Assembly (NCBI GenBank): GCA_041478145.1
Contig: JBGOVO010000001.1
Coordinates: 5,702 to 69,701, forward strand
Direction: 5' to 3'
DNA from: Candidatus Methylomirabilia bacterium
GTDB taxonomy: Bacteria; Methylomirabilota; Methylomirabilia; Rokubacteriales; CSP1-6
Length of the DNA: 64,000 nucleotides
Program-made: the position numbers and the translations under genes
The notes under the pieces: model-generated
Database searches by the model: none
Seen by the model: only the letters and a program-made list of their open reading frames with translations
What the model was told of the DNA's origin: nothing
In this document: piece after piece, positions 2,296 through 61,306 of the stretch
Position numbering within the stretch: position 1 is the stretch's first letter
Layout of the letters: the number at the start of each line of letters is the position of its first letter

Positions 2296-3297
2296 ATGCG
2301 TACCGTCCTTGTCACCGGCGGCGCCGGCTTCATCGGCTCTCATCTCGTCGACCAGCTCCTGGACGGCGGGGCCGCCGTACGGGTTCTCGACAATCTCTCG
2401 ACGGGCTCCCTGGTCAACCTGCAGGCGGCCGCCGAGCGGCACCCGCAGCAAGGCCGCGCGCCGAACCGCGGCCGTCTCGAGTTCATCATCGGCGACATCC
2501 GGGATCGGGAACTCCTTCGCAAGGCCCTCCGGAACGTCAAGTACGTCTTTCATCTGGCGGCCCTGCCGCCGAGCGCCGTCTCGGTCACGGACCCCGGTGA
2601 CGTCCATGCCGTGAACGTGGAAGGCACCTTGAACCTGCTCCACGGCGCCCTCACGGAGGGGGTGTGGCGCGTGGTCCTCGGGTCCTGCGCCTCCGTGTAT
2701 GGGCTGCCCGAGGTCGTGCCGGTCTCCGAGGACGCCCCCCTGCGGCCCACCAGTCTCTTCGCCGCCTCCAAGGTGGCCGCGGAGACGTACTGTCGAGCCT
2801 TCCATGCGCGCCACCAGCTGGACACCGTGATGCTGCGCTATTTCACGATCTACGGTCCGCGACAGAGAGCGACGGCGGCCGGGGTCATCGCCCCCAAGCT
2901 GATCGAGGCCCTCCGGCAGCGCCACCCCTTCGTCGATCAGGACGACCGCAGCGCCGAGGATTTCACCTACGTGGAGGACGCCGTCGCCGCCACCCTGGCC
3001 GCGGCGCGCGCCCCGCGGGCCGCCGGCCGGGCCATCAACGTCGGCTCCGGCCAGATGGTGGCCATCAGCGACGTGCTGGGCATTCTCGCCAGTCTCGTGC
3101 GCGTACCGGTCACCACCGGTTTCCCGCGGAGCCCGGACGCGCCAGTGTACCGGATCTGCGCCCAGACAACGCTCGCCACCGAGCTGCTCGAGTTCACCCC
3201 GCGCGTGTCGCTGATCGCCGGGCTGGCGCGCATGGTCAGCTCCCTGGACGGACAGCCTGAACGAGCAGCCCTCGCGCCCGTGGGCTCCGATGATTAA
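2296..3297 (+). CDS. NAD-dependent epimerase/dehydratase (WbpP/TviC-like UDP-HexNAc(A) 4-epimerase candidate)
   Basis: MRTVLVTGGAGFIGSHLVDQLL Rossmann motif and SDR fold. Lies immediately downstream of the dehydrogenase, as in the WbpA-WbpP / TviB-TviC gene pairs. Confidence 0.8.
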   Translation: MRTVLVTGGAGFIGSHLVDQLLDGGAAVRVLDNLSTGSLVNLQAAAERHPQQGRAPNRGRLEFIIGDIRDRELLRKALRNVKYVFHLAALPPSAVSVTDPGDVHAVNVEGTLNLLHGALTEGVWRVVLGSCASVYGLPEVVPVSEDAPLRPTSLFAASKVAAETYCRAFHARHQLDTVMLRYFTIYGPRQRATAAGVIAPKLIEALRQRHPFVDQDDRSAEDFTYVEDAVAATLAAARAPRAAGRAINVGSGQMVAISDVLGILASLVRVPVTTGFPRSPDAPVYRICAQTTLATELLEFTPRVSLIAGLARMVSSLDGQPERAALAPVGSDD

Positions 3298-4150
3298 CGC
3301 CCTGACGTTCGACGTTGAGGATTATTTCCACGCCGAGGCCTTCGCGGGCGTCGTGCGGCCTGAGGAGTGGCCTGGCCTCGAGAGCCGGGTGGTGGCCGCC
3401 ACCGAGCGAATCCTGAGCCTGCTCGGGGAGACCGGCACGCGCGCGACCTTCTTCGTGCTGGGCTGGGTCGCGGAGCGTCATCCGCGCCTGGTGGCCGCCA
3501 TCCGGTCCAAGGGCCATGAGGTCGCCTGCCATGGCTATGGCCACCAGATGATCACGCGGCTGAGCCGGCCTCAGTTCGCCGCCGATCTGGAGCGCGCGAA
3601 GGCCACCCTGGAGGACGCCGCCGGCGTCGCGGTGGTCGGCTATCGAGCGCCGACCTTCTCGGTGGTACGCGAGACCCTCTGGAGCCTGGAGGTCCTCGCC
3701 GAGACCGGCTTCCTCTACGATTCGAGCATCTTTCCGATCGTGCACGACCGCTACGGCATCCCGGACGCGCCGCGCTTCCCACACCGGCGGGCCGTGGGCT
3801 CCGGGAGCGCCATCGCGGAGTTTCCGCTCTCGACGGTCTGCCGGCTGAGGTGGCGCTTCCCGGTCGCGGGCGGCGGCTACTTCCGGCTGCTTCCCTACGC
3901 GGTCACGGCCTGGGCGCTCCGCCAGCTCAACCGGAAGGAAAGCCAACCCGCGATCGTCTACCTGCACCCGTGGGAGATCGACCCCGGGCAGCCGCGGCTG
4001 CCGGTGGACCGGCTCACCCAGTTTCGCCACTCGGTCAATACCCGCACCACCGAGGCGAAGCTCCGACGGCTGCTGCGCGACTTCCACTTCGCCCCGGTCC
4101 GGGACGTGTTGGCGGGCTCCGGGATCATGGCGGCCGGAGGAGTCTCGTGA
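3290..4150 (+). CDS. polysaccharide deacetylase family protein, PEP-CTERM-locus subfamily
   Basis: N-terminus MINALTFDVEDYFH is typical of the NodB-like deacetylases that accompany exosortase A loci. Its ATG overlaps the stop of the upstream gene. Confidence 0.8.
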   Translation: MINALTFDVEDYFHAEAFAGVVRPEEWPGLESRVVAATERILSLLGETGTRATFFVLGWVAERHPRLVAAIRSKGHEVACHGYGHQMITRLSRPQFAADLERAKATLEDAAGVAVVGYRAPTFSVVRETLWSLEVLAETGFLYDSSIFPIVHDRYGIPDAPRFPHRRAVGSGSAIAEFPLSTVCRLRWRFPVAGGGYFRLLPYAVTAWALRQLNRKESQPAIVYLHPWEIDPGQPRLPVDRLTQFRHSVNTRTTEAKLRRLLRDFHFAPVRDVLAGSGIMAAGGVS

Positions 4151-5235
4151 GGATTCTCGCCGTCGTCGGAGCCCGGCCGAACTTCGTCAAGATCGCGCCG
4201 ATCATGGCGGAGCTGGCGGAGTACCCCTACATCGCCACCACGCTGGTGCACACCGGTCAGCACTACGACGCGCAGATGTCGGACTCCTTCTTCGCGAACC
4301 TCGAGATCCCGCGGCCGGACGTCAACCTGAAGGTGCAGGCGGCAAGAGCGGTGACCCAGATTGCGGAGATCATGACGCGGATCGAGCCGGTGATCGAGCA
4401 CACGCGCCCCGACGTCGTGGTGGTGGTGGGTGACGTCAACTCCACCGTGGCCGCCACCCTCGCCGCGGTCAAGGCGGGACGGCCGGTGGCGCACGTGGAG
4501 GCGGGACTCCGCAGCTTCGACCGCAACATGCCGGAAGAGGTGAACCGGGTCCTCACCGACGCCGTCTCCGATCTGCTCTTCACCACGGAGTTATCGGGGG
4601 ACGAGAACCTCGCGCGAGAGGGTGTGGCCGCCGACAAGGTCCACTTCGTCGGCAACGTGATGATCGACACCCTGTTCCGCTACCGGGAGCGCGCGCGCCA
4701 GTCGGACGTGCTCGATCGCCTCGGTCTCGGGTCCGCCGGGTACGCCGTGCTGACGCTGCACCGGCCGAGCAACGTGGACGACGAGGGCACGCTGGGGCTG
4801 CTCCTGGGCGCCATCGCGCGCATCCAGGCCGAGATCCCGGTGGTCTTCCCCGTGCACCCGAGGACGCGGCGGCGGCTGGAGGCGCTTTCCGCCGTCCTTC
4901 CTCCGATGCCCGGCCTTCGACTGGCCGATCCGATGCCGTATCTCGACTTCGTCCAGCTCATGGGGGAGTCACGCTGCATCCTGACGGACTCCGGCGGCAT
5001 CCAGGAGGAGACTACCGCGCTGGGGATTCCGTGCCTCACCCTCCGCCACAACACCGAAAGGCCGGTGACCGTGACGCGCGGCACCAACCGCATCGTGGGT
5101 ACGGAGCCCGACGCGATCTATCAAAGCTGGCGCGAGGTGGCGGAGGGGCGCTGGCCCGCGGGCGAGCTGCCGGAGCTGTGGGACGGCAAGGCTGCGGGGC
5201 GGATCGTACGCATTCTCCTCGGGACCACCAAGTAG
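4147..5235 (+). CDS. wecB: UDP-N-acetylglucosamine 2-epimerase (non-hydrolysing)
   Basis: VRILAVVGARPNFVKIAPIMAEL...HTGQHYD...VVVGDVNST...VHVEAGLRSFDR is the WecB/MnaA signature. A GTG at 4147 overlaps the upstream TGA (GTGA). The longer track ORF from 3850 overlaps the deacetylase and was rejected. Confidence 0.85.
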   Translation: MRILAVVGARPNFVKIAPIMAELAEYPYIATTLVHTGQHYDAQMSDSFFANLEIPRPDVNLKVQAARAVTQIAEIMTRIEPVIEHTRPDVVVVVGDVNSTVAATLAAVKAGRPVAHVEAGLRSFDRNMPEEVNRVLTDAVSDLLFTTELSGDENLAREGVAADKVHFVGNVMIDTLFRYRERARQSDVLDRLGLGSAGYAVLTLHRPSNVDDEGTLGLLLGAIARIQAEIPVVFPVHPRTRRRLEALSAVLPPMPGLRLADPMPYLDFVQLMGESRCILTDSGGIQEETTALGIPCLTLRHNTERPVTVTRGTNRIVGTEPDAIYQSWREVAEGRWPAGELPELWDGKAAGRIVRILLGTTK

Positions 5236-5247
5236 GCCGGGAACGCC

Positions 5248-6273
5248 GTGGACATCCGACCGCTCACGACCGAGACCGTTGAGTGGGATGCCTTCGTGCG
5301 CAGCGCGTCGGGAGGCAGCCCCTTCCACCTGATCGCCTGGAAGCGTGCAGTCGAGAGCGCCTTCGGGCACCGGCCACACTACCTCATGGCCGTGCGCGGA
5401 GGTGGCCTCGAAGGCGTGCTGCCCCTGTTCGAGGTGCGCGGGCTGTTCGGAGGCCGCGGGCTCGTTTCCGTGCCCTACGGCGTCTACGGCGGCATCTGCG
5501 CGTCGGTCGCGCCCGCTCGCCGCGCGCTCGTGGAAGCGGCGCGCGAGCTGGGCCGCCGCCTCGGCGTCGAGTACGTGGAGCTGAGGCATCGGCCCACCCA
5601 GCAGCTAGACGAGCTTCCGACCAAGAGCATGTACGTGACGTTCTCGCGTTCCGTCTCGGCCAACGACGAGGAGAACCTCACCGCTATCCCGCGCAAGCAG
5701 CGGCGGATGACGCGCCAGGGCCTCAAGCACGGGCTCCGCGCCGAGATCGGTCTGCACCACCTCGACGCTTTCTGGCACGTCTATGCCCACAGCGTGCACG
5801 CGCTCGGCTCGCCGGTGTTCCCGCGCCGGCTCTTCCGCGCGATCGCCCACGAGTTCGGCAAGGAGTGCGAGCTGCTGACGGTCTGGAAGGACGAGCGGAT
5901 GGTCTCGGGCGTGCTCTCGCTCTACTACGAGGACCAGGTGCTCCCCTACTACGGAGGAGCCCTGTCGGACGCGCTGCCGTACGCGGTGAACGACTTCATG
6001 TACTGGGAGCTCATGTGCCACGTGGCGAAGGCCGGCTGCCGGATCTTCGACTTCGGCCGCAGTCGCGAGGGCACCGGCGCCTATCATTTCAAGCGGCACT
6101 GGGGCTTCGAGCCCGTGCCGCTCCCGTATCAGTACATCCTGGCGGGCGGTCGTGAGATGCCCAATGTGAGCCCGTCCAACCCCAAGATGCGCCTGGCCGT
6201 GAAGACCTGGAAGCGACTGCCGCTGCCGCTGACGAAGGTCGTCGGCCCGCTGCTGACGCGATACCTGCCATGA
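5248..6273 (+). CDS. FemAB-family protein, PEP-CTERM system-associated subfamily
   Basis: About 340 aa with a FemAB/GNAT-like fold (HLIAWKRAV...YYGGALSDALPYAVNDFMYWELMCHVAKAGCRIFDFGRS). This architecture is typical of the pepcterm_femAB proteins of exosortase A loci. Confidence 0.7.
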   Translation: MDIRPLTTETVEWDAFVRSASGGSPFHLIAWKRAVESAFGHRPHYLMAVRGGGLEGVLPLFEVRGLFGGRGLVSVPYGVYGGICASVAPARRALVEAARELGRRLGVEYVELRHRPTQQLDELPTKSMYVTFSRSVSANDEENLTAIPRKQRRMTRQGLKHGLRAEIGLHHLDAFWHVYAHSVHALGSPVFPRRLFRAIAHEFGKECELLTVWKDERMVSGVLSLYYEDQVLPYYGGALSDALPYAVNDFMYWELMCHVAKAGCRIFDFGRSREGTGAYHFKRHWGFEPVPLPYQYILAGGREMPNVSPSNPKMRLAVKTWKRLPLPLTKVVGPLLTRYLP

Positions 6274-7526
6274 ATATCCTCATGCTCGGACGGTGGCTCC
6301 CGCCGCCGCGGCGGCCCGTCAAGGCCACGCGCGAGTACCAGTTCGCGCGCGAGCTGGCCCGGAGCCATCACCTCACGCTCGCGTTCATCAACGACAATCC
6401 CGACGCGGCCGGCGTGATATCCGCGCTGCGCAGCGATTTCGGCGATCTGGAGTTTGCCTCGGTGCCACGCGCCTGGAGGTCGCTCGCCGGCGCCATCAGC
6501 CTCGCCACCGGCGAGTCGTGCACGCTGTCGTACTTCCGGTCGGAAGCCCTGAGAACCCGGCTCGCCGAGCGGCTCCGTCGCGCTCCCTACGACGCCGTGC
6601 TCGTGACGTCCTCCAGCATGCTCCAGTACGCGCTCGGGGTGGACCGGGCCATTCCCCTGGTCGTGGACTTCGGCTCCGTGGACTCGGAGTGGTGGGCCGC
6701 CCAGGGCACGCGGAGCTCGTTCCCGTCGGGCCAATTCTTCCGGACCGAGGCCGCCCGCCTTCGGGCCGCGGAGTCGGCGGCCGCCAAGCTAGCCGCGCGC
6801 TGCATCGTCGCGACCTCGGAGGCGGCGCGGATCGTCCAGTCGCTCTCGGCGGGAGAGCCGACCGCGGTGATTCCCAACGGGCTGGATCTCGACTTTTTCG
6901 GTGCGGTGCCGCGTCCGAGCACCAGCCCGACCGTCATCCTGAATGCCGCGCCGGGTGTCGACGACGGGCTCGCCGACATCGTGCAGTTCTGCCGCGAAGT
7001 CGTTCCGCTGGTGAAGGCGCGCTTTCCGAAGGTCCGGTTCATCGTCTCCACCCGGGACCCGCTCGCCGGCGGCAAGCGGCCCGCTAGTCTCCCGGAGCTC
7101 GAGATCGCGGGGCCGGCGACCGACCTCCGTGCCCTCTTCCATAGCCACGCGGTGGCGGCGGCCCCGGCCGGCTCGAGGGTGGACGTGCGGAGCAGCGTGC
7201 TCGAGCCCATGGCGGCCGGCATCCCGGTGGTCGCGGGTACCTATCTTCGGGATGAGCTCGGGGCCAAGGCCGGCGGGGCGCTGCTCGTCTGCGAGACCGC
7301 GTTCGATTTCGGCCTGCGGATCATTCAGCTCCTGGAAGATGCGGCCTTCCGGGTGGAGCTCGGGGCGCGGGGCCGGGCGTATGCGGCCGCCCATCACGCC
7401 TGGAGCGTGCTGACGCCGAGGCTCGCCGAGATCGTGGAGAGCCTGGCCAAGCCGACCTGCGGGCCGCCCTCGCTGGCCCCCGCCGCGCTCAATCCCCGAA
7501 CTCCACTCCACGGCGACGCGCAATGA
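6270..7526 (+). CDS. glycosyltransferase family 4 (PEP-CTERM/EpsH1-associated sugar transferase-like, divergent)
   Basis: MNILMLGRWLPPP... N-terminus parallels the MNILFLCHRLPYPP gene at 20644. C-terminal GT-B fold motifs are present (EPMAAGIPVVAG). ATG overlaps the upstream stop. Confidence 0.65.
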   Translation: MNILMLGRWLPPPRRPVKATREYQFARELARSHHLTLAFINDNPDAAGVISALRSDFGDLEFASVPRAWRSLAGAISLATGESCTLSYFRSEALRTRLAERLRRAPYDAVLVTSSSMLQYALGVDRAIPLVVDFGSVDSEWWAAQGTRSSFPSGQFFRTEAARLRAAESAAAKLAARCIVATSEAARIVQSLSAGEPTAVIPNGLDLDFFGAVPRPSTSPTVILNAAPGVDDGLADIVQFCREVVPLVKARFPKVRFIVSTRDPLAGGKRPASLPELEIAGPATDLRALFHSHAVAAAPAGSRVDVRSSVLEPMAAGIPVVAGTYLRDELGAKAGGALLVCETAFDFGLRIIQLLEDAAFRVELGARGRAYAAAHHAWSVLTPRLAEIVESLAKPTCGPPSLAPAALNPRTPLHGDAQ

Positions 7527-9367
7527 GCGGCGTGGCGGGGATCGTCTTCCGGGATCCGGAGCGGCCGATCGAGGTGTCGGCGGCCGTCGCGTTTACGCCG
7601 GGAGTCGGTGACCACCCGCGGCCGGCACCGCTGTCGGCGCCCGGTCTCTTCCTGCAGGGCGTCGGCGGAAGCACACGCTCGGAGAAGCGGCCAGACGCGC
7701 TCGTCGTCGCCGATCTCGACGTCACGAACCTCGACGACCTTCTCACGAGTGCGCGCAGCGCCTCCCCGGGAGAAGCCCTGAGCCGGCTCTATCGTCGAGA
7801 GGGCGCCGAGTTCCTGACGCGGCTCCGGGGACCGTTCGCCCTGGCGATCTGGCTCCCGGTCGAGCGCCGTCTCCTGCTCGCGGGGGACCGCTTCGGCATC
7901 CGTCGCATCTACTACGCCGCCAGCGGCGACGGGCTGGCTTTCGGTCCGCAGGCGCCCGACGTCCTGGCGCGGGCGGACGGTCCGAGGGACCTGGATCCGA
8001 GCGCGATCTACGCCTACATGAACTTCGGCACCGTCCCGGCGCCCCAGAGCATGTACCGCGCCGTCCGGCGTCTGCCGCCCGGGCAGGCGCTTCTCTGGGA
8101 TGACGGCCACGTCTCGGTGCGGCCGTACTGGGACCTCGCCTACGAGGAGCAGCGGCGCCCACCCGCGATGGCCGCCGCCGACATGGTGCGCTACACCGAA
8201 GAGGCAGTACGTCAGGCTCTGGTCGGGACCGATCCGAAGAGCACCGGTGCCTTCCTCAGCGGCGGCACGGACAGCAGCACGGTGGTGGGCCTGATGGCCC
8301 GACTGACCGGCGAGCAGGTCCATACCTTCTCGATCGGCTTCCGTGAGCAGCGCTACAACGAGCTGGCCTACGCGCAGCTGGCCGCGCGCCACTTCAGCGC
8401 CGCCCACTATACGCAGCTGGTCACTCCCGACCAGGCGTTCGCTTGCCTCCCCGAGCTCGTCGCGGGGTACGACGAGCCCTTCGGCAACAACTCGGCGATC
8501 CCCACCTACCTCTGCGCGCGCCTGGCCCGCGAGAACGGCATGGAGCGGCTCCTGGCGGGCGATGGTGGCGACGAGATCTTCGGTGGCAACGAGCGCTACC
8601 GGCGGGAGCAAATCCTGGCCCGCTACGGTGTCATCCCCGCGCCGATCCGGGCCCGGCTCATCGAGCCCGTGCTCCGCGCGCTTCCGGCCGGAGGCCCGAC
8701 CCTCCTGGGCAAGGCCCAGCGCTACGTCGCTCGGGCGTCGCAGCCGAATCCCGACCGCTTCTACTCGAGCGAGTTCCTTCTCGCCCACGAAGGCGGCCGG
8801 CTGCTCGACCCGGGCTTCCTCGGGCTCGTCGACCGCGACGGGCCCCTGGAGATCGCTCGGGGCCACTACCGGGCCGCCCGCGCCACCTCCAATCTCAACC
8901 GCCTCCTCTACGTGGACATGAAGATCACCCTCGGGGACAACGATCTGCTCAAGGTCTCGCGAGCGGCCGAGCTGGCGGGCATCGCAGTCCGCTTTCCGAT
9001 GCTGGACCATCCGCTGGTTGAGTTCACCGCCACCCTCCCCGCTCGCGACAAGGTCCGAGGGACCGAGAAGCGTTACCTCTTCAAGCGCGCCTTCGCCTCG
9101 CTGCTTCCCCGCGAGATCCTGGCGAAGACGAAGCACGGCTTTGGTCTCCCGATCAGCGACTGGCTGAAGAATCACGCGCCGTTCCGGGACCTAGCCCGCG
9201 ACACGCTCCTATCGGCCCGGTCCCGCCAGCGTGGCTACTATGCGCCCGGTGCCCTCCAGTGGCTGTTCGACCAGCACCAGGCCGACGGGACGCCGTACTA
9301 CGGCGACATCCTCTGGTCGCTTCTCATGCTCGAGCTGTGGCACTGCCATCACGAGGCCGGCGAATGA
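7523..9367 (+). CDS. asparagine synthetase (AsnB)-family amidotransferase paralog with degenerate glutaminase domain (Cys1 to Ser)
   Basis: C-terminal synthetase domain is intact (FLSGGTDSST, DEPFGNNSAIPTYLCARLARENG..LAGDGGDEIFGGNERY). N-terminus is MSGVAGIVF instead of MCGI, and the HRGPD and NGEIYN glutaminase motifs are absent. Confidence 0.8.
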   Translation: MSGVAGIVFRDPERPIEVSAAVAFTPGVGDHPRPAPLSAPGLFLQGVGGSTRSEKRPDALVVADLDVTNLDDLLTSARSASPGEALSRLYRREGAEFLTRLRGPFALAIWLPVERRLLLAGDRFGIRRIYYAASGDGLAFGPQAPDVLARADGPRDLDPSAIYAYMNFGTVPAPQSMYRAVRRLPPGQALLWDDGHVSVRPYWDLAYEEQRRPPAMAAADMVRYTEEAVRQALVGTDPKSTGAFLSGGTDSSTVVGLMARLTGEQVHTFSIGFREQRYNELAYAQLAARHFSAAHYTQLVTPDQAFACLPELVAGYDEPFGNNSAIPTYLCARLARENGMERLLAGDGGDEIFGGNERYRREQILARYGVIPAPIRARLIEPVLRALPAGGPTLLGKAQRYVARASQPNPDRFYSSEFLLAHEGGRLLDPGFLGLVDRDGPLEIARGHYRAARATSNLNRLLYVDMKITLGDNDLLKVSRAAELAGIAVRFPMLDHPLVEFTATLPARDKVRGTEKRYLFKRAFASLLPREILAKTKHGFGLPISDWLKNHAPFRDLARDTLLSARSRQRGYYAPGALQWLFDQHQADGTPYYGDILWSLLMLELWHCHHEAGE

Positions 9368-10368
9368 GCGCCCGGACCCGCGCGATTCGCGCCGTCGCCG
9401 GGGGGCTCTACCACAGCGGCCTGCTCCGGCCCCTCGCGGCGGCGGCCTCGCGGCTCCGGAGAGGCAACGCCTTCACCGTGTTGACGTTCCACCGGGTGAA
9501 CGACGAGGTGGATCCGTTCTTTCCGTCGCTCGCGACGGCGGTCTTCGCGGAGCGCATGCAGCACATCGCGCAGAACTACTCCGTCCTCGCCGTGGAGGAG
9601 CTCGTGGATCTCCAGCGGCAGGAGCGCGTGCCGCGGAACGCCCTCGCCGTGACCTTCGACGACGGCTACCGCGACACCCTCACGCATGCGGCGCCGATCC
9701 TGGCCCGTCACGGGCTAGCCGCGACGGTGTTCCTTGCCACCGGGTACATCTCGAGCCCGTCCATGCCGTGGTACGACCTCTTGGCCCTCGCGCTCAAGAC
9801 GACCCGGCGGGAGAGTATCGAGCTCGCGCCCGGGGAGCGGCTCGCGCTCGACTCGCCCACCCGGCGGCTGCAGGCGCTCGCGAGTGCCCTCCGTCACATG
9901 AAGCGGCTGCCGGACCCGGCGCGCCGGCGCGCCGTGGACCGCCTCGTGTCCGAGCTCGAACCATCCGGCTCGGAGCGCCAGAAGCGTCTCATGCTGAACT
10001 GGGATGAGGTGCACGCGCTGCGCGGCCTCGGCTTTTCGATCGGGGCTCACACTGTGAGCCACCCGATCCTGTCGCGGCTCGAGCCCGATGAGGCCTGGGC
10101 CGAGATCCACGGCGCCAAGCAGAGCATCGAGGAGAATCTCGGGACCCGGGTCAAGGCATTCGCGTATCCGAACGGGGGCGCGGACGACTATGACCAGGTC
10201 GCGCTCGGGCTCCTCGAGCGGGCGGGTTTCACCTGCGCTGTGACCACCCGCCGTGGACTCAACACGGCCCGGACGCCGCGCTTCGAGCTCCGCCGGGGCG
10301 GCCCCTGGGAGCAGCACTTGCCGACGTACGCGCTGAAGCTGGCCTGTTACCAGCTCAGTGGCATCTAG
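9364..10368 (+). CDS. polysaccharide deacetylase (NodB homology domain)
   Basis: Motifs VLTFHRVNDE, TFDDGYRD and HTVSHPIL. ATGA overlap with the upstream AsnB-like gene. Confidence 0.75.
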   Translation: MSARTRAIRAVAGGLYHSGLLRPLAAAASRLRRGNAFTVLTFHRVNDEVDPFFPSLATAVFAERMQHIAQNYSVLAVEELVDLQRQERVPRNALAVTFDDGYRDTLTHAAPILARHGLAATVFLATGYISSPSMPWYDLLALALKTTRRESIELAPGERLALDSPTRRLQALASALRHMKRLPDPARRRAVDRLVSELEPSGSERQKRLMLNWDEVHALRGLGFSIGAHTVSHPILSRLEPDEAWAEIHGAKQSIEENLGTRVKAFAYPNGGADDYDQVALGLLERAGFTCAVTTRRGLNTARTPRFELRRGGPWEQHLPTYALKLACYQLSGI

Positions 10369-13604: not shown

Positions 13605-15500
<1,896 letters not shown>

Positions 15501-24981: not shown

Positions 24982-26907
24982 ATGTGCGGCATCAGTGGAG
25001 TGGTGTACACGGATCGCTCGCATCCGGTGGACCGCGAGCTGGTGCGGCGGCTGACGAGCACCCTGGCCCATCGGGGCCCGGATTCCGACGGCTTCCTGTT
25101 CGACGAGGGGGCGGCGCTGGGGCACCGCCGGCTGAGCATCATCGACCTCTCGACCGGTGATCAGCCGATCTACAACGAGGACCGCAGCAAGGCGGTGGTC
25201 TTCAACGGCGAGATCTACAACTTCCGCGCGCTGCGGGCCGAGCTCGAGGGGTGCGGCCACCGGTTCGAGACCGCCTCGGACACGGAAGTGATCCTCCACG
25301 CCTGGGAGGAGTACGGCGACGGCTTCGTCTCGCGCCTGCGTGGGATGTTCGCGTTCGCGGTCTGGGACCTCCGTCATCGGCGGCTTCTGCTCGCCCGGGA
25401 CCGGGTCGGAAAGAAACCGCTCTACTACGCTCACGACGCCGAGCGGCTTCTCTTCGGGTCCGAGCTCAAGGCCATCGTTGCCGACCCGTCGGTCAAGCGG
25501 GCCATCAGCCTGGAGGCGGTGGACGAGTATCTGACGTTCGGGGCCGTCCCCGCGCCCCGCACGATCTATCAGAGCGTGCAGCAGCTGCCCCCCGCGCACT
25601 ACCTGGTCTGGGAGGCCGGACGCGTTCGCCTCGTCGAATACTGGGACCTGACCTACTCCCGGGTTCCGGCGCGGTCGGAAGCCGCGTGGCTCGAGGAGTT
25701 CGAGTCCATCTTCGAGGAGGCCGTGCGGCTGCGACTGATCAGCGACGTGCCCCTCGGCGCCTTCCTGAGCGGCGGGGTGGACTCGACCGTGGTGGTGGCG
25801 GCCATGGCACAGGCGTCCGACCGTCCCGTGGCCACCACCACGGTGACTTTCGATGAGCGCGCGTTCAACGAGGCTCCCCATGCTCGCGCCGTGGCCCGAA
25901 GCCTCGGGACCGATCATCAGGAGGTCGTGGTCGCGCCGCGCGCGGTGGACATCCTTCCCACCATTGCCTGGCATCTGGACGAGCCGTTCGCCGACTCCTC
26001 GGCGCTCCCGACCTACTATGTCGCCCGGGCCGCGCGCCAACGGGTAACGGTGGCCCTCTCCGGCGACGGCGGCGACGAGATCTTCGCCGGCTACGAGTGG
26101 CGCTACGGGCTCAACCTGCTCGAGGACCGGATCCGGCGGCGGATTCCCGGTGGGCTCCGGCGGGGGATCTTCGGGCCGCTGTCCGCGGTGTGGCCGAAGG
26201 CCGACCGGCTTCCGCGTCCGCTCCGCTGGAAATACCTTCTCCGGAACGTGAGCCTCGAGCCGGAGACCGCCTACTTCCAGGACCTGAGCCGGTTCACGCC
26301 GGCCGACAAGCGCGATCTGCTCACGCCCGACTTCCGGCGGAGCCTGCATGGCCACGATCCCTTCCAGGGCTTCCGGCGCCACTTCGACCGCGTCCGGGGG
26401 CTCGACCACCTCAACCGGATCCTCTACGTGGACCTCAAGACGTGGCTGGCGAACGACATCCTCGTCAAGGTGGACCGGATGGCGATGGCGAGCTCCCTCG
26501 AGGTGCGCTCCCCGCTGCTCGACCATCACATCATCGAGTTCGCAGCGACGCTGCCGCCCGACCTGAAGTTCCGCAACGGGAAGGCCAAGTACCTCCTCAA
26601 GCGCTATGCGGAGCGCCGGGCGCCGGCCTCCGTCATCCACCGGCCCAAGCAGGGTTTCTCGATTCCGCTCGCCGCCTGGCTCCGCACGGACCTGCGGCCG
26701 ATGGCCGAGGATCTGCTGCTCTCCGAGCGGGCGCTGGGCCGCGGCTACTTCCAGCCGGAGGTTGTGCGCGGCCTGTGGGGCCGCCACCAGGAGAGGACGC
26801 GGGACCACGCCCACCAGATGTGGGCCCTCATGATGCTCGAGCTGTGGCACCGGCTCTTCGTGGACCAGACGCCCGGCGCGGCGCCAGCGGCTCCGGAGCC
26901 CCGCTGA
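24982..26907 (+). CDS. asparagine synthetase-family amidotransferase (exosortase A-associated type)
   Basis: MCGISGVVY...HRGPDSDG...FNGEIYNF and SGGVDST, GDGGDEIFAGYEWRY motifs. The internal ATG at 24982 was chosen because the upstream part of the track ORF overlaps the preceding GT. Confidence 0.85.
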   Translation: MCGISGVVYTDRSHPVDRELVRRLTSTLAHRGPDSDGFLFDEGAALGHRRLSIIDLSTGDQPIYNEDRSKAVVFNGEIYNFRALRAELEGCGHRFETASDTEVILHAWEEYGDGFVSRLRGMFAFAVWDLRHRRLLLARDRVGKKPLYYAHDAERLLFGSELKAIVADPSVKRAISLEAVDEYLTFGAVPAPRTIYQSVQQLPPAHYLVWEAGRVRLVEYWDLTYSRVPARSEAAWLEEFESIFEEAVRLRLISDVPLGAFLSGGVDSTVVVAAMAQASDRPVATTTVTFDERAFNEAPHARAVARSLGTDHQEVVVAPRAVDILPTIAWHLDEPFADSSALPTYYVARAARQRVTVALSGDGGDEIFAGYEWRYGLNLLEDRIRRRIPGGLRRGIFGPLSAVWPKADRLPRPLRWKYLLRNVSLEPETAYFQDLSRFTPADKRDLLTPDFRRSLHGHDPFQGFRRHFDRVRGLDHLNRILYVDLKTWLANDILVKVDRMAMASSLEVRSPLLDHHIIEFAATLPPDLKFRNGKAKYLLKRYAERRAPASVIHRPKQGFSIPLAAWLRTDLRPMAEDLLLSERALGRGYFQPEVVRGLWGRHQERTRDHAHQMWALMMLELWHRLFVDQTPGAAPAAPEPR

Positions 26908-28238: not shown

Positions 28239-29804
28239 ATGGATTTCCTGATCCACCACATGCTCCAGGCGAGCGCGCGCCGCCATTCCGCGAAGGAAGC
28301 GCTCGTCCATGCCGAGGAGCGCCTGGCCTACGATGACGTGGCGCGGCGGGTCTCCGGCCTCGCCACCGGCCTCCGCGAGGCCGGGCTCGAGCGAGGCGAC
28401 CGCATCGGCATCTATCTGGACGCGTCGGTGCCGCAGGTGCTCTCCATCTTCGGCGTCTCCCAGGCGGGCGGGGTCTACGTGCCCGTGAACGGGCTGCTCT
28501 TCCCCGATCAGGTGGCCTTCATCGCTCGGGACTGCGGGATGAAGGGGCTCATCACCACCCCCGAGAAACTGGCCCCGCTCGCGCAGGCCTTGAAAGAGGT
28601 CCCGTCTCTCGAGTTCGTCGTCCTCGTGGGCGGCTTCGGCCTCGTGGACAGCCCGCTCGCCGTCCACGATTTCGAGGCCTGCTGCGCGCTCCCGCCGCCC
28701 TCGCCGTGGCGCGAGCAGGCCATCGAGAAGGATCTGGCCGCCATCCTGTACACGTCGGGCTCCACCGGGAAGCCGAAGGGCGTCATGCTGAGCCACGCGC
28801 AGGTCATGGCCGGCAGCTCCATCGTGTCCGCCTATCTCCGGATCACCGAGGCGGATCGGATCCTCGCGGTGCTGCCCTTCAGCTTCGACGCCGGCATGAA
28901 CCAGCTCATGACGGCCTTCCAGCAAGGGGCGACGCTCATCCTGATCAACTTCGTCTTCGCCCGTGAGGTCGTCCGGACGCTGCTCCGCGAGCGGGTCACG
29001 GGCCTCGCCGGCGTGCCCACGTTCTGGAGCCTCCTCGCGCAGCCCACCTCGGGCCTGCAGAAGCAGCCGCTGCCCGACCTGCGCTACCTCACCAACACGG
29101 GCGGAGCGATGCCCCAGACCGTGCTGGCGACGCTTCGGTCCCTCCTGCCCTCCACCGACATCTTTCTCATGTACGGTCTCACGGAGGCCTTTCGCTCGAC
29201 GTATCTCCCGCCCGAGGAGCTCGCCTACCGGCCCACGTCCATCGGCAAGGCGATCCCGGACACCGAGATCCTGGTGATCAACGAGCACGGCGGCCTCTGC
29301 AAGCCGGGAGAGGTCGGCGAGCTGGTCCACCGGGGCCCCACCGTGTCCCTCGGGTATTGGGGTCATCCGGAGCTGACGGCCAAGGTGCTCCGGCCGAACC
29401 CGCTGCTGCCGCCCGAGCTCGCCGACGTGGTCTGCTACTCGGGCGACTACGTGAAGATGGACGAGGAGGGGTATCTGTACTTCGTCGGGCGGCGCGACGC
29501 AATGATCAAGTCGTCCGGCTTCCGTATCAGCCCGACCGAGGTCGAGGAAGTCCTGTTCCGCAGCGGCCGGCTCAAGGGCGCCGCCGTCATCGGGCTGCCC
29601 GACGAGGTGCTCGGGCAATCGATCAAGGCGCTCGTGGTGGTCCGGGACGGCGAGCCGCTGGACCCGGCCCAGCTGCGCGAGTTCTGCGCCGCCAACATGC
29701 CGCGCCACATGGTGCCCAAGGTCATCGAGGTGCTGGACGACCTGCCGAAGACCCCGAGCGGCAAGGTGGACTATCCTGCCCTTCGCCGGCGTGAAGGGCT
29801 CTAG
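28239..29804 (+). CDS. acyl-CoA/AMP-forming ligase (adenylation enzyme), exosortase A-associated type
   Basis: LYTSGSTGKPKGVMLSH adenylation box, plus YGLTE and GDYVKMDEEGYLYFVGRRDAMIKSSGFRISPTEVE motifs. A strong RBS GGGAGGAGG lies upstream. Confidence 0.85.
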   Translation: MDFLIHHMLQASARRHSAKEALVHAEERLAYDDVARRVSGLATGLREAGLERGDRIGIYLDASVPQVLSIFGVSQAGGVYVPVNGLLFPDQVAFIARDCGMKGLITTPEKLAPLAQALKEVPSLEFVVLVGGFGLVDSPLAVHDFEACCALPPPSPWREQAIEKDLAAILYTSGSTGKPKGVMLSHAQVMAGSSIVSAYLRITEADRILAVLPFSFDAGMNQLMTAFQQGATLILINFVFAREVVRTLLRERVTGLAGVPTFWSLLAQPTSGLQKQPLPDLRYLTNTGGAMPQTVLATLRSLLPSTDIFLMYGLTEAFRSTYLPPEELAYRPTSIGKAIPDTEILVINEHGGLCKPGEVGELVHRGPTVSLGYWGHPELTAKVLRPNPLLPPELADVVCYSGDYVKMDEEGYLYFVGRRDAMIKSSGFRISPTEVEEVLFRSGRLKGAAVIGLPDEVLGQSIKALVVVRDGEPLDPAQLREFCAANMPRHMVPKVIEVLDDLPKTPSGKVDYPALRRREGL

Positions 29805-31128
29805 AGGCGTCGCGGTGGGTGCCGTGGCCGCCCTGGTCGACCGCAACTTCCCCGGGTCGGGGCGCGAGCTCCTCGTGGGCGGCTGCCCGGTCACCGAGCT
29901 CGCCGGGCGCCACGGCACCCCGCTCTACGTCTACGACACCGCCACCATCGATCGGCAGCTCGCGCGGCTGCGCGGCAGTCTGCCGCCCGGATTCTCGGTC
30001 TACTACTCCGTCAAGGCCAACCCGAGCCGCGCGCTGCTGCGCCATTTCCTCGCGCGGGGATGCGGGCTCGAGGTGGCCTCCGCGGGAGAGCTCGGCGGGG
30101 CGCTGGCCGCCGGCTGCCCGGCCGACCGCATCTTCTTCGCCGGCCCCGGCAAGACGGAGGCCGAGCTCGAGGAGGCCGTGGTCCAGGGCGTCGGCGAGAT
30201 CCACGTGGAGTCGCTCACCGAGGCCCGGCGGATCGGCGCTATCGCGCGTCGGCACGGCACCCGCGCCCGCGCAGCCCTCCGGGTGAACCCCGGTGCGGAG
30301 GCCCAGGGCGGCGCCATGCGCATGGGTGGCAAGCCCGCGCCCTTCGGCGTGGACGAAGAGCGGATCGAGGAAGCGCTGGATCTGCTGGAAGGCGATGCCG
30401 CCATCGACCTGCAAGGCCTGCATCTCTTCACGGGCACGCAGATCCTCGACCATGCCATCGTGGTCGCCCAGTACCGACACGGTCTCCAGCTCGCCCGGCG
30501 GGTGGCGGCCCGCCTGGGCCGACCACTCCACACGCTCGATTTCGGCGGAGGCTTCGGGATCCCGTACTTCGCCAACGAGACCGAGCTCGACATGGACAAG
30601 CTTCGAGAGGAGCTGCGCGCGCTCCTCGCCGCCGTCGAGGGCGACCCGCTCTTCCACGGCACCCGGTTCGTGGTCGAGCCCGGGCGCTACCTCGTCGGGG
30701 AGGCCGGGATCTTCGTCACGCGGATCACCGACATCAAGGTCTCGCGGGGCAAGACATTCCTGATCACGGACGGCGGGATGAACAATCATCTCGCCGCGTC
30801 GGGGAACCTCGGCCAGGTCATCAAGCGCAACTATCCGATCGCCATCGCCGGTCGCCTCGCTGAGGATCAGGCCGCTGCCGTGGATGTCGTGGGCCCTCTC
30901 TGCACCCCCCTCGATACCCTTGCGCGCGATGTCAGTCTCCCGCCCGCGGACATCGGCGACCTGGTCGTGATCTTCCAGTCCGGCGCATACGGTCTCACCG
31001 CGAGCCCGGTGATGTTCCTCGGCCATCCGGTGCCCGCGGAGGTGCTCGTCACCGACGGCCGGTCCGAGGTCGTTCGCGCCCGCACGCCGTCGTCCGGGAC
31101 GCTTGCGTCTGACAGGATGGGAACGTGA
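29791..31128 (+). CDS. PLP-dependent decarboxylase, Orn/DAP/Arg decarboxylase family 2 (diaminopimelate decarboxylase-like), exosortase A-associated type
   Basis: TPLYVYD...YSVKANP motif with the PLP lysine, and an alanine-racemase-like TIM barrel plus C-terminal beta domain. Start uncertain (GTG 29791, overlaps the ligase stop). Confidence 0.8.
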   Translation: MKGSRGVAVGAVAALVDRNFPGSGRELLVGGCPVTELAGRHGTPLYVYDTATIDRQLARLRGSLPPGFSVYYSVKANPSRALLRHFLARGCGLEVASAGELGGALAAGCPADRIFFAGPGKTEAELEEAVVQGVGEIHVESLTEARRIGAIARRHGTRARAALRVNPGAEAQGGAMRMGGKPAPFGVDEERIEEALDLLEGDAAIDLQGLHLFTGTQILDHAIVVAQYRHGLQLARRVAARLGRPLHTLDFGGGFGIPYFANETELDMDKLREELRALLAAVEGDPLFHGTRFVVEPGRYLVGEAGIFVTRITDIKVSRGKTFLITDGGMNNHLAASGNLGQVIKRNYPIAIAGRLAEDQAAAVDVVGPLCTPLDTLARDVSLPPADIGDLVVIFQSGAYGLTASPVMFLGHPVPAEVLVTDGRSEVVRARTPSSGTLASDRMGT

Positions 31129-32201
31129 CCTGGACGCTCCACTCGGCAGCCGAGGCCTTCGAGGGGCACCGGGAGACCTGGGATGCGCTGAACCGGGCGA
31201 ACGGGAATCACGTCCTGCTGGACTCGGGGTTCGTCGCCATCCTTCTCCGTCATTTCGGTCACGCGGGGGTGAAGCTCGCCGTGTCCGAGCATCCGGAACG
31301 GCCGGGCCTGGCCCTGCTCGAAAGGACCCGCGGCGGCTTCTGGCGGACATTTCAGCCCTCGCAGGCGCCGCTCGGCCTGATTCTGTTCGGCTCCCGCCAG
31401 GACATCTTCGGCCAGATCCAGCGGCTCATTCGCGCCCTGCCCGGGTACGCGCTGGGCCTGGCCGTGCTGCAACAGGATCCGGACTTCACCTGCTTCGGAG
31501 ACCTCGCTCCGAGGCCAGATCTGGAAACCCTCGACTACATCCGGACGGCCCGGCTGACCCTGACCGGCTCCTTCGATGACTACTGGAGCTCTCGCGACCG
31601 GCGCTGGTCTCGCGACCTCGCGCGGCAGCGGCGCCGCCTGGTCGAACGCGGGGCCCGCCTCGAGCTCCAAATCACCCGTGAGCCGGAGGAGGTCGGCGCC
31701 GCCATCCGCGACTACGGGGTCCTGGAGGCTGCGGGCTGGAAGGCGAAGCACGGTACGGCCATCGCGCCCGAGAACGCCCAGGGGCAGTTCTACCGGGAGG
31801 CCCTCGAGTACTTCTGCGCCCGAAATGAAGGCGTCATCTACCGGCTGCGCCTCGAAGGGCAGACGGTGGCCGCCAACCTGTCCATCGAGCGCGACACGAT
31901 GCTGATCGTCCTCAAGATCACCTACGACGAGAGCATCCCGACCCTGTCGCCGGGACATTTCCTCGAGGCGGAGATGCTGCGCGCGGTGTTCGCGGAGGGG
32001 CGCATCAAGGTCGAGGAGTACTACGGCCCCTTCAAGGACTGGCAGGCCCGCTGGACCGACGAGATCCGGACCATGCACCACCTGAACTTCTACCGGTCCG
32101 CGGCGGCGGCGAGGGTTCGTCAGCTCCTGAAGACGGCCGCCGGCGGCGTGCGTGATCTCCGGCGCCGGATCGCCGGGCGAGGAGCCAGGGAGCAGCCGTG
32201 A
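31125..32201 (+). CDS. CelD/BioF2-like GNAT-fold acyltransferase (FemAB-related)
   Basis: About 358 aa. GTG start overlaps the upstream TGA. C-terminal GNAT-like region (LEAAGWKAKHGTAIAPENAQGQFYRE). Confidence 0.5.
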   Translation: MTWTLHSAAEAFEGHRETWDALNRANGNHVLLDSGFVAILLRHFGHAGVKLAVSEHPERPGLALLERTRGGFWRTFQPSQAPLGLILFGSRQDIFGQIQRLIRALPGYALGLAVLQQDPDFTCFGDLAPRPDLETLDYIRTARLTLTGSFDDYWSSRDRRWSRDLARQRRRLVERGARLELQITREPEEVGAAIRDYGVLEAAGWKAKHGTAIAPENAQGQFYREALEYFCARNEGVIYRLRLEGQTVAANLSIERDTMLIVLKITYDESIPTLSPGHFLEAEMLRAVFAEGRIKVEEYYGPFKDWQARWTDEIRTMHHLNFYRSAAAARVRQLLKTAAGGVRDLRRRIAGRGAREQP

Positions 32202-33472
32202 CGCAGCGGGTGCTCATGGTCGCCTTCCACTACCCACCCTGCGTCGGGAGCAGCGGCGTCCATCGCACGCTCAAGTTCTCCCGCTACCTGCTGGATCACG
32301 CCTGGCAGCCCGTCGTCCTGACCGCGAACCCTCGCGCCTATGCCCAGCGCGCCGAGCACCAGCTCGCCGAGATACCCGCGGCGGTGGCGGTCGCGCGCGC
32401 ATTCGCACTGGACTCGCGCCGCCACCTGGCGATCCGCGGCTCCAGCCTGCGGCTCACCGCCCTGCCGGATGCCTGGTCGAGCTGGTGGCTCGGAGCGATT
32501 CCGGCCGGGCTCCGCCTGATCCGCCGGTACCGTCCCGCCGCACTCTGGTCCACGTATCCGATCGCCACTGCGCATCTGATCGGCTTGACGCTCCACCGGC
32601 TCACCCGGATCCCCTGGGTCGCCGACTTCCGCGACTCGATGACCGAGGAGTTCTCCCCTTCGGATCCGGCGACCCGGCGAGCGTTTCTCTGGATCGAGCG
32701 GCACACCGTCCGCGCCGCGGCCCGGCTGGTCTTCACCGCGCCGTCGACGAAGCGCATGTACCTCGACCGCTACCCCGGCCTACCCGCGTCGCGCTGCCTC
32801 GTCATCTCGAACGGCTACGACGAGACCGACTTCGCCGGTCTCCTGCCCTCGACGCCTCCGACACCGGCCCCGCTCCGGCTCATCCACGCCGGCGTGATCT
32901 ACGAGTTCGAGCGGGACCCGCGGCCCTTCTTCCGCGCCCTTGCGCGGCTTCGCCGGGAGGGGCGGGTCGGCGCGCAGAGCCTCCGCGTAGAGCTGAGGGG
33001 ATCGGGGACAGACGCTTACTGCGCCCGCCTCATCCGCGAGCTCGGGATCGACGACTTCGTGCACGTCCTCCCCGCGCTCCCGTACCACGAGAGCCTCGAG
33101 GACTGCATGACGGCCAGCGCCCTTCTCCTCCTCCAGGGGGAGAGCTGCAATCACCAGATCCCGGCGAAGGCGTACGAGTATCTCCGCCTCGGCAAGCCGA
33201 TCCTCGCGTTGACGTCGGCCACCGGGGACACCGCCGGGCTCCTCACCGAATGCGGTGGCAGCACGATCGAGGATCTGGCGGACGAAGAGGCCATCTACCG
33301 GATCCTGCCGGGGTTTCTCGACTCGCTGCGCGCTGGCACCCACGCTCTGCCCGAGCCCGCGCGGGCCGGGCGCTATGCGCGGCACAGCCAAGCGCGGGAC
33401 CTGGCCGCCTGTCTGTCCGAGGTTGCCGCGGCGCGGAGGGACGGCGCCGCCGTCGGAGTCGGCGATGGGTGA
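32198..33472 (+). CDS. glycosyltransferase (GT-B fold, GT4-like)
   Basis: VLMVAFHYPPCVGSSGVHRTLKFSRYLLDHAWQPVVLT N-terminus and a C-terminal GT-B half. A GTG start overlaps the upstream stop. Confidence 0.6.
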   Translation: MTQRVLMVAFHYPPCVGSSGVHRTLKFSRYLLDHAWQPVVLTANPRAYAQRAEHQLAEIPAAVAVARAFALDSRRHLAIRGSSLRLTALPDAWSSWWLGAIPAGLRLIRRYRPAALWSTYPIATAHLIGLTLHRLTRIPWVADFRDSMTEEFSPSDPATRRAFLWIERHTVRAAARLVFTAPSTKRMYLDRYPGLPASRCLVISNGYDETDFAGLLPSTPPTPAPLRLIHAGVIYEFERDPRPFFRALARLRREGRVGAQSLRVELRGSGTDAYCARLIRELGIDDFVHVLPALPYHESLEDCMTASALLLLQGESCNHQIPAKAYEYLRLGKPILALTSATGDTAGLLTECGGSTIEDLADEEAIYRILPGFLDSLRAGTHALPEPARAGRYARHSQARDLAACLSEVAAARRDGAAVGVGDG

Positions 33473-33479
33473 GCTGCTC

Positions 33480-34664: not shown

Positions 34665-34689
34665 AGTACCTCAGCGGGTTTCGCCCACC

Positions 34690-38264: not shown

Positions 38265-38368
38265 TACACTGCTTGTCTGGCCAGTCCCTGTATACTCGCC
38301 ATGCGTGTTAACCAATTTGGATGCGGCGGGGAGCGTCCTTTCCGTTGAGCCGGTCGAGGAGGTATTCA

Positions 38369-39445: not shown

Positions 39446-39451
39446 GGCTGC

Positions 39452-40498: not shown

Positions 40499-40510
40499 GC
40501 CCGGAGCGTA

Positions 40511-42730: not shown

Positions 42731-42748
42731 CCGGAGCGACCTGGGGTG

Positions 42749-43543: not shown

Positions 43544-43574
43544 GCTCTCTCCTGTCAGGCAGCGCCGCGGGCGC

Positions 43575-52010: not shown

Positions 52011-52020
52011 GCCCGTCGCC

Positions 52021-52551
52021 TCAGGCCGGGAAGTCCGGATAGCTCCGGTCATGGTCGGAGATGGTCCGCTCGGCATCCGGCCACCGGATGCCGAAGACCG
52101 GATCGTCCCACCTCACCCCACGGGCGTGATCCGGCGCGTAGAACTCGGACATCTGATAGAAAACCTCGGTCTCGTCCTCGAGCGTCTGGAAACCGTGCGC
52201 GACGCCCTCAGGCACGTAGAGCATGCGGCGGCTGTCCGCGTCGAGCACCACCGCCTCGTGACGCCGGAAGGCCGGCGAGTCGGGGCGGAGGTCGATGATC
52301 ACGTCATGAATCGCTCCGCGCGTGCACCGGATGAGCTTGGCCTCCCGGTGTGGCACCGCCTGGTAGTGCATGCCGCGGAGGGTGCCCCGGCACTTGTTGA
52401 AGGACACGTTGCACTGCACGAGGCGGGGGTTGAGCCCCCGCTCCTGGAAGTCGCGCTCGCACCAGCTCCGCGCGAAGAAGCCCCGCGCGTCCTCGAGCCG
52501 CTCGAGGTCCACGATCCACGCGCCCGGGAGCGCGGTCTCGGTGAAGATCAC
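52021..52551 (-). CDS. NDP-4-keto-6-deoxyhexose 3,5-epimerase, cupin fold (RfbC-like)
   Basis: 176 aa covering only the C-terminal third of the 655-aa track ORF (the rest is off-frame junk). Motifs RGFFARSW, RGMHYQ and GVAHGFQTLED. GTG start overlaps the methyltransferase stop (GTGA). Confidence 0.8.
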   Translation of the reverse strand: MIFTETALPGAWIVDLERLEDARGFFARSWCERDFQERGLNPRLVQCNVSFNKCRGTLRGMHYQAVPHREAKLIRCTRGAIHDVIIDLRPDSPAFRRHEAVVLDADSRRMLYVPEGVAHGFQTLEDETEVFYQMSEFYAPDHARGVRWDDPVFGIRWPDAERTISDHDRSYPDFPA

Positions 52552-61299: not shown

Positions 61300-61306
61300 G
61301 CGCCCC

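Follow-up and report, generated by a model that had tools for sequence, protein, structure and literature searches.

Enzymes of the asparagine synthetase (AS) family activate a carboxylate by adenylation and then attach nitrogen to it, and variants of this chemistry amidate peptide C-termini, form lactams, or close lasso peptides (PMC13060819, PMC13622209). Here we describe a member of this family encoded on a 64,000-nucleotide stretch of Candidatus Methylomirabilia bacterium DNA (GenBank assembly GCA_041478145.1, contig JBGOVO010000001.1, positions 5,702 to 69,701), referred to below as the window. The gene (7523..9367, +) specifies an AS-like protein that lacks the catalytic N-terminal cysteine of the family, Cys1, and it lies in an exopolysaccharide (EPS) locus of the PEP-CTERM/XrtA type. 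Systems of the PEP-CTERM/exosortase type occur widely among bacteria of soil, sediment, and wastewater, where they are the basis of flocs and biofilms.

Several described systems bear on this protein. Escherichia coli AsnB (1CT9; TIGR01536) has in common with it the fold, the ATP pyrophosphatase loop (PP-loop), and the equivalents of Asp351, Glu352, and Lys449; however, the window protein has lost all of the glutaminase residues, and its genomic context has no link to amino acid metabolism. The TIGR03108 (eps_aminotran_1) enzymes and the uronamide synthases of the WbpS/WbqG type are like it in their two-domain AsnB fold and in the type of EPS locus that encodes them, and TIGR03108-type enzymes are its sister clade in a tree of the synthetase domain. 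These enzymes differ from the window protein, which has no Cys1 and no glutamine pocket and carries the replacements Ser346 to Ala and Lys429 to Arg. Beta-lactam synthetase (1JGT/1MBZ), the carbapenam synthetase CarA (1Q15), and the lasso cyclases likewise combine a vestigial, Cys1-less N-terminal domain with an intact adenylation site, and they use an amine borne by the substrate as the nucleophile. Unlike them, the window protein is longer and sits among polysaccharide genes rather than in a cluster for a natural product or a ribosomally synthesized and posttranslationally modified peptide (RiPP). Glutaminase-less AS-like enzymes are, then, already known as a kind; what is new here is the lineage, its polysaccharide setting, and its own set of partners.

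A pathway with the same three enzyme types as the window locus is the Wbp/Vim pathway of Porphyromonas gingivalis, in which a deacetylase (VimE), a FemAB-like transferase (VimA), and an AsnB-type enzyme (WbpS) build the linking sugar 2-N-seryl-3-N-acetylglucuronamide (PMC7468200). The authors of that work assigned WbpS to the canonical TIGR03108 family, reported that VimA matches TIGR03019, and drew a parallel to PEP-CTERM loci (PMC7468200). In both systems these enzymes are encoded alongside a glycosyltransferase and genes for uronic-acid sugars, and TIGR03019 is present in both. The window contains an adjacent CE4 deacetylase, a TIGR03019 protein, a UDP-sugar dehydrogenase, and a 2-epimerase; in related loci, but not in the window, a dedicated GNAT-type acyltransferase gene adjoins the Cys-less gene. 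It departs from the Wbp/Vim pathway in that its AsnB-type member is Cys-less and in that the GNAT of its relatives (AT6b) belongs to a different Acetyltransf_6 subfamily from TIGR03019.

Catalytic sites of the Cys-less protein

The gene appears in the list of open reading frames (ORFs) as 614 aa plus a stop codon. It is a genuine gene rather than a chance ORF, given that its product matches Pfam Asn_synthase with an E value of 2.4e-82 and is conserved across at least 120 orthologous clusters. The protein begins MSGVAGIVF. Its ATG shares the sequence ATGA (7523-7526) with the stop codon of the glycosyltransferase gene upstream, and its own stop shares a second ATGA (9364-9367) with the start of the deacetylase gene downstream, such that the gene is translationally coupled to both. 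A preliminary description of this DNA had raised the possibility of an alternative start restoring an MCG N-terminus. The preceding in-frame stop lies at 7253-7255, and the 89 codons between it and position 7523 contain no ATG, GTG, or TTG and no start codon followed by Cys, which rules out an upstream start of this kind. Residues 1-307 are free of Cys altogether, and the only Cys residues of the protein are 308, 331, and 608.

The N-terminal domain (residues 1-205; 7523..8137, +) is a degenerate version of the class II, N-terminal nucleophile (Ntn)-type glutaminase fold, as evidenced by its partial Pfam matches and by residue losses. GATase_7 matches it over profile positions 47-117 only, at 43.9 bits, versus 166 and 162 bits for the two paralogs encoded in the window, and the match to GATase_6 is partial too. 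For the residue analysis, the three window proteins and 112 homologs were aligned to E. coli asnB from NC_000913, and a catalytic-site table was compiled in E. coli AsnB numbering for 12 canonical and 82 Cys-less sequences (94 in total). Cys1, Arg49, Leu50, Ile52, Asn74, Gly75, Glu76, Asn79, and Asp98 are invariant in the 12 canonical sequences. Across the 82 Cys-less sequences, by contrast with the adenylation residues discussed below, Cys1, Arg49, Asn74, Gly75, Glu76, and Asp98 are unconserved. In the window protein, Ser2 stands in place of Cys1, the Arg49 loop is missing through a nine-residue deletion, with Arg49-Leu50-x-Ile52 either absent or aligned with Gly, Asn74-Gly75-Glu76 has become Asp64-Leu65-Asp66, and Asp98 has become Pro82. 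The preliminary description had reported that the protein starts MSGVAGIVF without HRGPD or NGEIYN motifs, had judged its glutaminase half probably inactive, and had suggested an alignment with E. coli AsnB as a check; the translation and the alignment agree on all these points, with the equivalents of Cys1, Arg49, Asn74, and Asp98 all lost. As far as sequence goes, inactivity of the glutaminase half is supported.

Where canonical enzymes carry the FNGEIYN oxyanion-hole and glutamine-binding motif, the alignment places ADLDVTN in the window protein (residues 63-69; 7709..7729, +), and ADLDxxN is a newly conserved motif of the Cys-less proteins; its Asp66 is near-invariant in the family alignment (A1). 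Residues 101-205 are also well conserved, whereas conservation within the family is only 23% over residues 12-60, compared to 69% in the synthetase domain. Residue 2 is S, N, R, I, T, or A among close orthologs, and because of this variation Ser2 does not qualify as a conserved replacement nucleophile. Of the distant representatives, about half have Ser or Thr at this position. Many distant members of the clade (P0121-P0269; L011, L013, L018, L022, and L057, among others) start MSG[IL]CGW, with Cys at position 5 rather than 2, and some members from Acidobacteriota start MAICGIA, which resembles a two-residue extension ahead of CGIA; both groups likewise lack equivalents of Arg49, Asn74, and Asp98.

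The synthetase domain presents the opposite picture. Pfam Asn_synthase (PF00733) covers profile positions 7-353 of 354 at 277.8 bits, against a cutoff of 21. The PP-loop SGGTDSS, an ATP pyrophosphatase motif (residues 246-252; 8258..8278, +), is invariant in all 94 sequences of the table, as are the equivalents of Gly347, Asp351, Glu352, and Lys449. In the alignment, the AMP/Mg site formed by Ser346, Asp351, and Glu352 of E. coli AsnB corresponds to AGDGGDEIFGG (residues 345-355; 8555..8587, +), and Lys449 corresponds to Lys537 within KTKHGFGLP (residues 535-543; 9125..9151, +). An intact PP-loop synthetase domain had been claimed in the preliminary description, and the full-length Pfam match together with these motifs bears that out. 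The residue table thus indicates that the glutaminase site is gone while the adenylation site is under strict constraint. Two substitutions set the Cys-less sequences apart. Ser346 is replaced by Ala in 77 of the 82 (Ala345 in the window protein, 8555-8557), and Lys429 by Arg in 81 of the 82; canonical enzymes keep Ser and Lys. These two positions may serve as diagnostic residues for the clade and might relate to a changed handling of substrate or nucleophile.

Structure prediction is consistent with a folded, two-domain protein. An AlphaFold2 model built from a 53-sequence alignment has the AsnB fold over its full length, with a mean predicted local distance difference test score (pLDDT) of 92 and a predicted template modeling score (pTM) of 0.92. 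In the model the N-terminal domain forms strands and helices over residues 3-201, mostly at pLDDT above 88, and retains the Ntn alpha-beta-beta-alpha sandwich; residues 21-30, which match the canonical HRGPD loop, have a pLDDT of 46. The nearest solved structures found by Foldseek are TsnB9, beta-lactam synthetase, E. coli and human asparagine synthetases, and CarA, with E values of 1e-18 to 1e-20 for beta-lactam synthetase and CarA at a sequence identity of only 16-18%; PurF and GlmS are matched weakly. The alignment also reveals a helical insertion of about 100 residues that is common to EPS-type AsnBs.

Two further AsnB-type amidotransferases are encoded in the window, at 13605..15500 (+) and 24982..26907 (+), and we found no fourth AsnB-like gene there, giving a total of three. 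Both of these copies begin MCGI and retain HRGPD and FNGEIYNF, just as had been described. Their best NCBIfam match is TIGR03108, at 707 and 758 bits, respectively, under the cutoff of 816.9. The first is 36% identical to the Cys-less protein over residues 78-606 and the second 34% identical; within the synthetase domain, identity to the two is 37-38%.

Extent and age of the Cys-less clade

At least 120 full-length clusters of 55-79% identity, mostly from genomes of Rokubacteria/Methylomirabilota, were recovered in a homolog search, and none of these close clusters has Cys at position 2 or either of the two glutaminase motifs. An exhaustive search of 50%-identity representatives was then used to place the protein more broadly. 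Among the best 150 representatives, all of which score at least 349 bits, 148 of the 149 that remain after excluding the protein's own family representative lack Cys2, HRGPD, and NGEIYN. The canonical paralogs of the window score 291-322 bits, below every one of the 150. A neighbor-joining tree computed from synthetase-domain columns without bootstrap places the Cys1-bearing sequences in one clade and all of the Cys-less sequences in its sister clade. A recent pseudogenization of one of the window paralogs is therefore ruled out, by these scores and by the separation of the two groups in the tree. A scan of species-representative genomes detected the clade in Methylomirabilota, Acidobacteriota, Actinomycetota, and Desulfobacterales; it also turned up numerous Beta- and Gammaproteobacteria with clade members, among them Janthinobacterium, Massilia, Duganella, Nitrosospira, Thiobacillus, Methylomonas, and Methylibium. 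These comparisons place the window protein in an old, monophyletic, and widespread Cys-less clade.

As judged from model scores, this lineage falls outside every named family tested. The best NCBIfam match of the window protein is TIGR03108, at 338.7 bits versus a cutoff of 816.9 and over profile positions 87-623 only; proteobacterial and acidobacterial members of the clade score 256-346 bits on the same model. TIGR01536 matches from profile position 99 at 237.8 bits (cutoff, 267.1), the lasso-peptide isopeptide cyclase model NF033535 at 134 bits (cutoff, 525), and the macrolactam cyclase model NF033561 at 65.5 bits (cutoff, 300). We found no curated NCBIfam model for the clade, and only subcutoff matches were obtained for the window protein, four distant members, the GNAT, and the deacetylase.

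Public names do not reflect this separation. The window protein is labeled "asparagine synthase (glutamine-hydrolysing)" by JGI, and its homologs bear names that are generic or wrong, either "asparagine synthase-related protein" or, on most named clusters, the same glutamine-hydrolysing label; the present analysis corrects that label for the window protein and for most of the named clusters. Our literature search found no earlier description of a Cys-less AsnB paralog in an exosortase or EPS locus. Haft 2006 does not mention one, and papers on Rubrivivax and Shinella merely list several "asparagine synthase" genes. PEP-CTERM loci are usually described as having several asparagine synthases, of which one would now represent a separate, old, glutaminase-less lineage.

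Partner genes and proposed function

The genes adjoining the Cys-less gene were compared in 12 related loci of the close subfamily, defined by at least 50% identity (L002-L010 and L089-L091). A CE4 deacetylase gene lies directly downstream in 12 of 12. The window's order of glycosyltransferase followed by Cys-less gene recurs in L089, L090, and L091, whereas in most close relatives a GNAT of the Acetyltransf_6 family sits between the two. This GNAT (366-368 aa) is encoded directly upstream, with overlapping gene ends, in 7 of the 12 loci (L002, L004-L006, and L008-L010; e.g., L002:8901-10004, L004:5428-6534, L005:8901-10004, and L006:3873-4973). The window, L007, and L089-L091 lack it, and a 357-aa gene at the GNAT position in L003 was left out of the count. 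L089 is the closest relative of the window locus, and the absence of the GNAT from both suggests gene loss in one sublineage. In four independent clusters (P0243, P0270, P0271, and P0272; 1032-1087 aa), the GNAT is fused to the N-terminus of a Cys-less AS-like protein. These fusions argue that the two activities work together, and they exclude a mechanism that depends on an N-terminal nucleophile. We consider the informative partners to be the co-translated CE4 deacetylase and, in relatives, the Acetyltransf_6 GNAT, rather than the canonical paralogs, and together with the GNAT fusions they make a concrete enzyme set for reconstitution.

Other arrangements were observed outside the close subfamily. 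One of the fusions, L087:3236-6499, has polysaccharide genes as neighbors, for a flippase, a GT4 enzyme, UbiA, and an Acyl_transf_3/SGNH protein, and no XrtA marker families. In Janthinobacterium, a deacetylase gene and an O-antigen-ligase-like gene lie near the Cys-less gene on the opposite strand. In a Massilia sp. metagenome-assembled genome (L088:4816-8261), the Cys-less gene overlaps the end of a gene for an AMP-binding acyl ligase, which itself follows two Hydrolase_4 genes; this arrangement corresponds to a different subcluster of the proteobacterial XrtA locus than the one in the window. In four loci from Acidobacteriota (L014:3390-7056, L015:4133-7848, L017:3507-7225, and L021:3850-7599), a canonical MCGI gene lies directly upstream of the Cys-less gene, and such a pair may be a relic of the original tandem duplication or a functional pair.

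We propose, tentatively and with a little less than an even chance of being right, that the window protein is a catalytically competent, ATP-dependent amide synthetase that adenylates a carboxylate, does without glutamine, and acts on a sugar of a PEP-CTERM/XrtA-type exopolysaccharide, most plausibly with an amine borne by the substrate. With the Ntn-glutaminase domain reduced to a structural module, glutamine nitrogen would not be supplied in cis. The enzyme would act in the cytoplasm on a precursor sugar of the exopolysaccharide; an N-acetyl-hexosaminuronic acid is probable, since the locus encodes a UDP-GlcNAc 2-epimerase and UDP-sugar dehydrogenases. Its partners would be the CE4 deacetylase and the glycosyltransferase translated along with it, joined in most relatives by the Acetyltransf_6 GNAT. 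Its intact PP-loop site would adenylate a carboxylate, either that at C-6 of a uronate or that of an attached amino acid, after which an amine other than that of glutamine would attack the acyl-AMP to form an amide. We infer both the identity of the substrate and that of the nucleophile. The favored amine would be substrate borne, for example, a sugar amine bared by the adjacent deacetylase or the amine of an amino acid, because this matches the characterized glutaminase-less AS-like enzymes; the coupled CE4 deacetylase and the GNAT lend it indirect support. The analogy with the Wbp/Vim pathway makes such a function testable. If amines other than ammonia are indeed ligated, AS-like amide-ligase chemistry would extend from antibiotics and RiPPs to polysaccharides.

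The proposal can be taken one step further, to a version that we regard as distinctly unlikely: the Cys-less clade could be the polysaccharide counterpart of beta-lactam synthetase and the lasso cyclases. A carboxylate of the EPS unit would then be adenylated and joined to an amine bared by the CE4 deacetylase or installed by the GNAT, yielding a substituted amide, a lactam, or a cross-link between residues, possibly as the "linking sugar" acceptor onto which exosortase loads PEP-CTERM proteins.

Several points weigh against the proposed amide synthetase. The window has no partner GNAT, only Acetyltransf_6 paralogs that are 25-30% identical to it (31125-32201 and 34627-35751). Among 80 distant genome loci examined with 6-kb flanks, in loci that may themselves exceed 40 kb, about 25 have a homolog of the deacetylase (deacetylase-2) no more than 6 kb away and about 16 have the GNAT in that range, and the linkage to both is tight only in the subfamily of at least 50% identity. 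We know of no substrate or product even for the canonical XrtA-type amidotransferases. There is also a simplest alternative, namely that free ammonia is used, as AsnB enzymes, including that of E. coli, are able to do.

That alternative, a uronamide synthase that draws NH3 from the cytoplasm and converts the C-6 carboxylate of a uronate to a carboxamide by WbpS-type chemistry, is the main rival, although on balance we think it rather unlikely. The intact adenylation site fits it, as does the kinship of the nearest sequence models, which are those of sugar/EPS amidotransferases with TIGR03108 the best; moreover, WbpS-type enzymes yield uronamides (PMC7468200), and AS-like enzymes are known that take ammonia instead of glutamine (PMC13060819). 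However, two glutamine-dependent copies are already present in the locus, so a plain ammonia-dependent duplicate would be redundant and add little. Free ammonia also leaves unexplained why a folded N-terminal domain with its ADLD..N motif is kept clade-wide, and why the gene is coupled to the deacetylase and GNAT genes and even fused to the latter. The characterized Cys-less AS-like enzymes, for their part, do not use ammonia. A quite improbable alternative is that the protein is a pseudoenzyme with a noncatalytic or regulatory role, bound to the canonical paralogs in a heteromer via the dimer interface of the N-terminal domain. The presence of canonical copies in the same locus, their adjacency in the Acidobacteriota pairs, and the conservation of residues 101-205 are compatible with this idea, but the clade-wide invariance of the ATP-site and catalytic residues would be unexpected in a scaffold and makes a noncatalytic role unlikely. 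Moreover, a canonical copy lies within 6 kb in only about 7 of the 80 distant loci, and the ammonia tunnel of AsnB is intramolecular (1CT9), so a partner could not feed the Cys-less subunit. Of the options put forward in the preliminary description, we therefore rank an amidoligase and an ammonia-dependent enzyme well above a partner subunit.

Two further explanations have very little to recommend them. Retained glutamine dependence, in which the N-terminal nucleophile would be an unconventional one (Ser2 or some other residue), draws on the precedent that Ser and Thr fill this role in other Ntn hydrolases and on their frequency at position 2 of distant representatives, yet we give it only the slightest chance: residue 2 varies in close orthologs, the Arg49 loop, Asn74, Gly75, and Asp98 are all gone, and the GNAT fusions bury the N-terminus. 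Variability and fusions together rule out Ser2 as a substitute nucleophile. It would be just as surprising if the gene, located by chance inside an EPS locus, encoded a cyclase for a peptide or small-molecule natural product (lasso-peptide, beta-lactam, or macrolactam type). Such cyclases have the same Cys-less AS-like architecture, the lasso and macrolactam cyclase models give weak matches, and there is structural similarity to beta-lactam synthetase and CarA. Those scores, though, are far under their cutoffs, translational coupling ties the gene to those for a glycosyltransferase and a deacetylase, and its neighbors are polysaccharide genes only, with no lasso protease/RiPP recognition element or beta-lactam pathway genes nearby (no search was aimed at a short lasso precursor ORF). 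Membership in the lasso, macrolactam, or beta-lactam families is ruled out by the scores and the context.

The surrounding exopolysaccharide locus

The gene directly upstream of the Cys-less gene encodes a TIGR03087-like GT4 glycosyltransferase (6270..7526, +; Pfam and NCBIfam), and the one directly downstream encodes the CE4 polysaccharide deacetylase (PF01522, 334 aa; 9364..10368, +). Farther upstream are genes for a FemAB-family XrtA/PEP-CTERM-associated protein (TIGR03019, 398 bits versus a cutoff of 260; 5248..6273, +), a UDP-GlcNAc 2-epimerase (within 3850-5235), an XrtA-system polysaccharide deacetylase with a DUF3473 domain (TIGR03006, 369.8 bits versus a cutoff of 276; 3290..4150, +), and a UDP-sugar dehydrogenase (977-2287), the epimerase and dehydrogenase being identified by Pfam and NCBIfam. 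Across the window, TIGR03006, TIGR03019, TIGR03097, TIGR04063, TIGR03088, and TIGR03098 are matched at or above their cutoffs, and UDP-sugar dehydrogenases, the UDP-GlcNAc 2-epimerase, GlmS, a flippase, and many GT4 enzymes are encoded as well. The window is a PEP-CTERM/XrtA-type exopolysaccharide locus. No exosortase gene was recognized among the window ORFs scanned with Pfam or NCBIfam. The ORF at 33255-34712 (485 aa) has no family match.

Other parts of the locus contain genes whose roles may bear on the polymer. At 28239-31128, a gene for the exosortase-A-associated acyl-CoA ligase TIGR03098 (624.7 bits, over the cutoff) is followed by one for a diaminopimelate-decarboxylase-like pyridoxal phosphate enzyme, which matches TIGR03099 at 466 bits, slightly under the cutoff of 478; this pair could be a source of an amine or acyl substituent for the polysaccharide. 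The distal locus (38321-45461 and 47749-49095) encodes polysaccharide-lyase-14-like, heparinase II/III-like, and sulfatase-family proteins and a pyruvyl transferase, which hint at an acidic, possibly substituted polymer and at its turnover. A sigma-54-dependent response regulator (PrsR-like) is encoded within 58325-62350, and after it come genes for a GNVR chain-length-determinant-like protein and an AAA_22 ATPase, a set reminiscent of the end of PEP-CTERM loci that serves regulation and assembly. Finally, a DUF4910/DUF2172/HTH_47 protein (374 bits to DUF4910) is encoded at 50694-52076 (-), amid sugar-modification genes.

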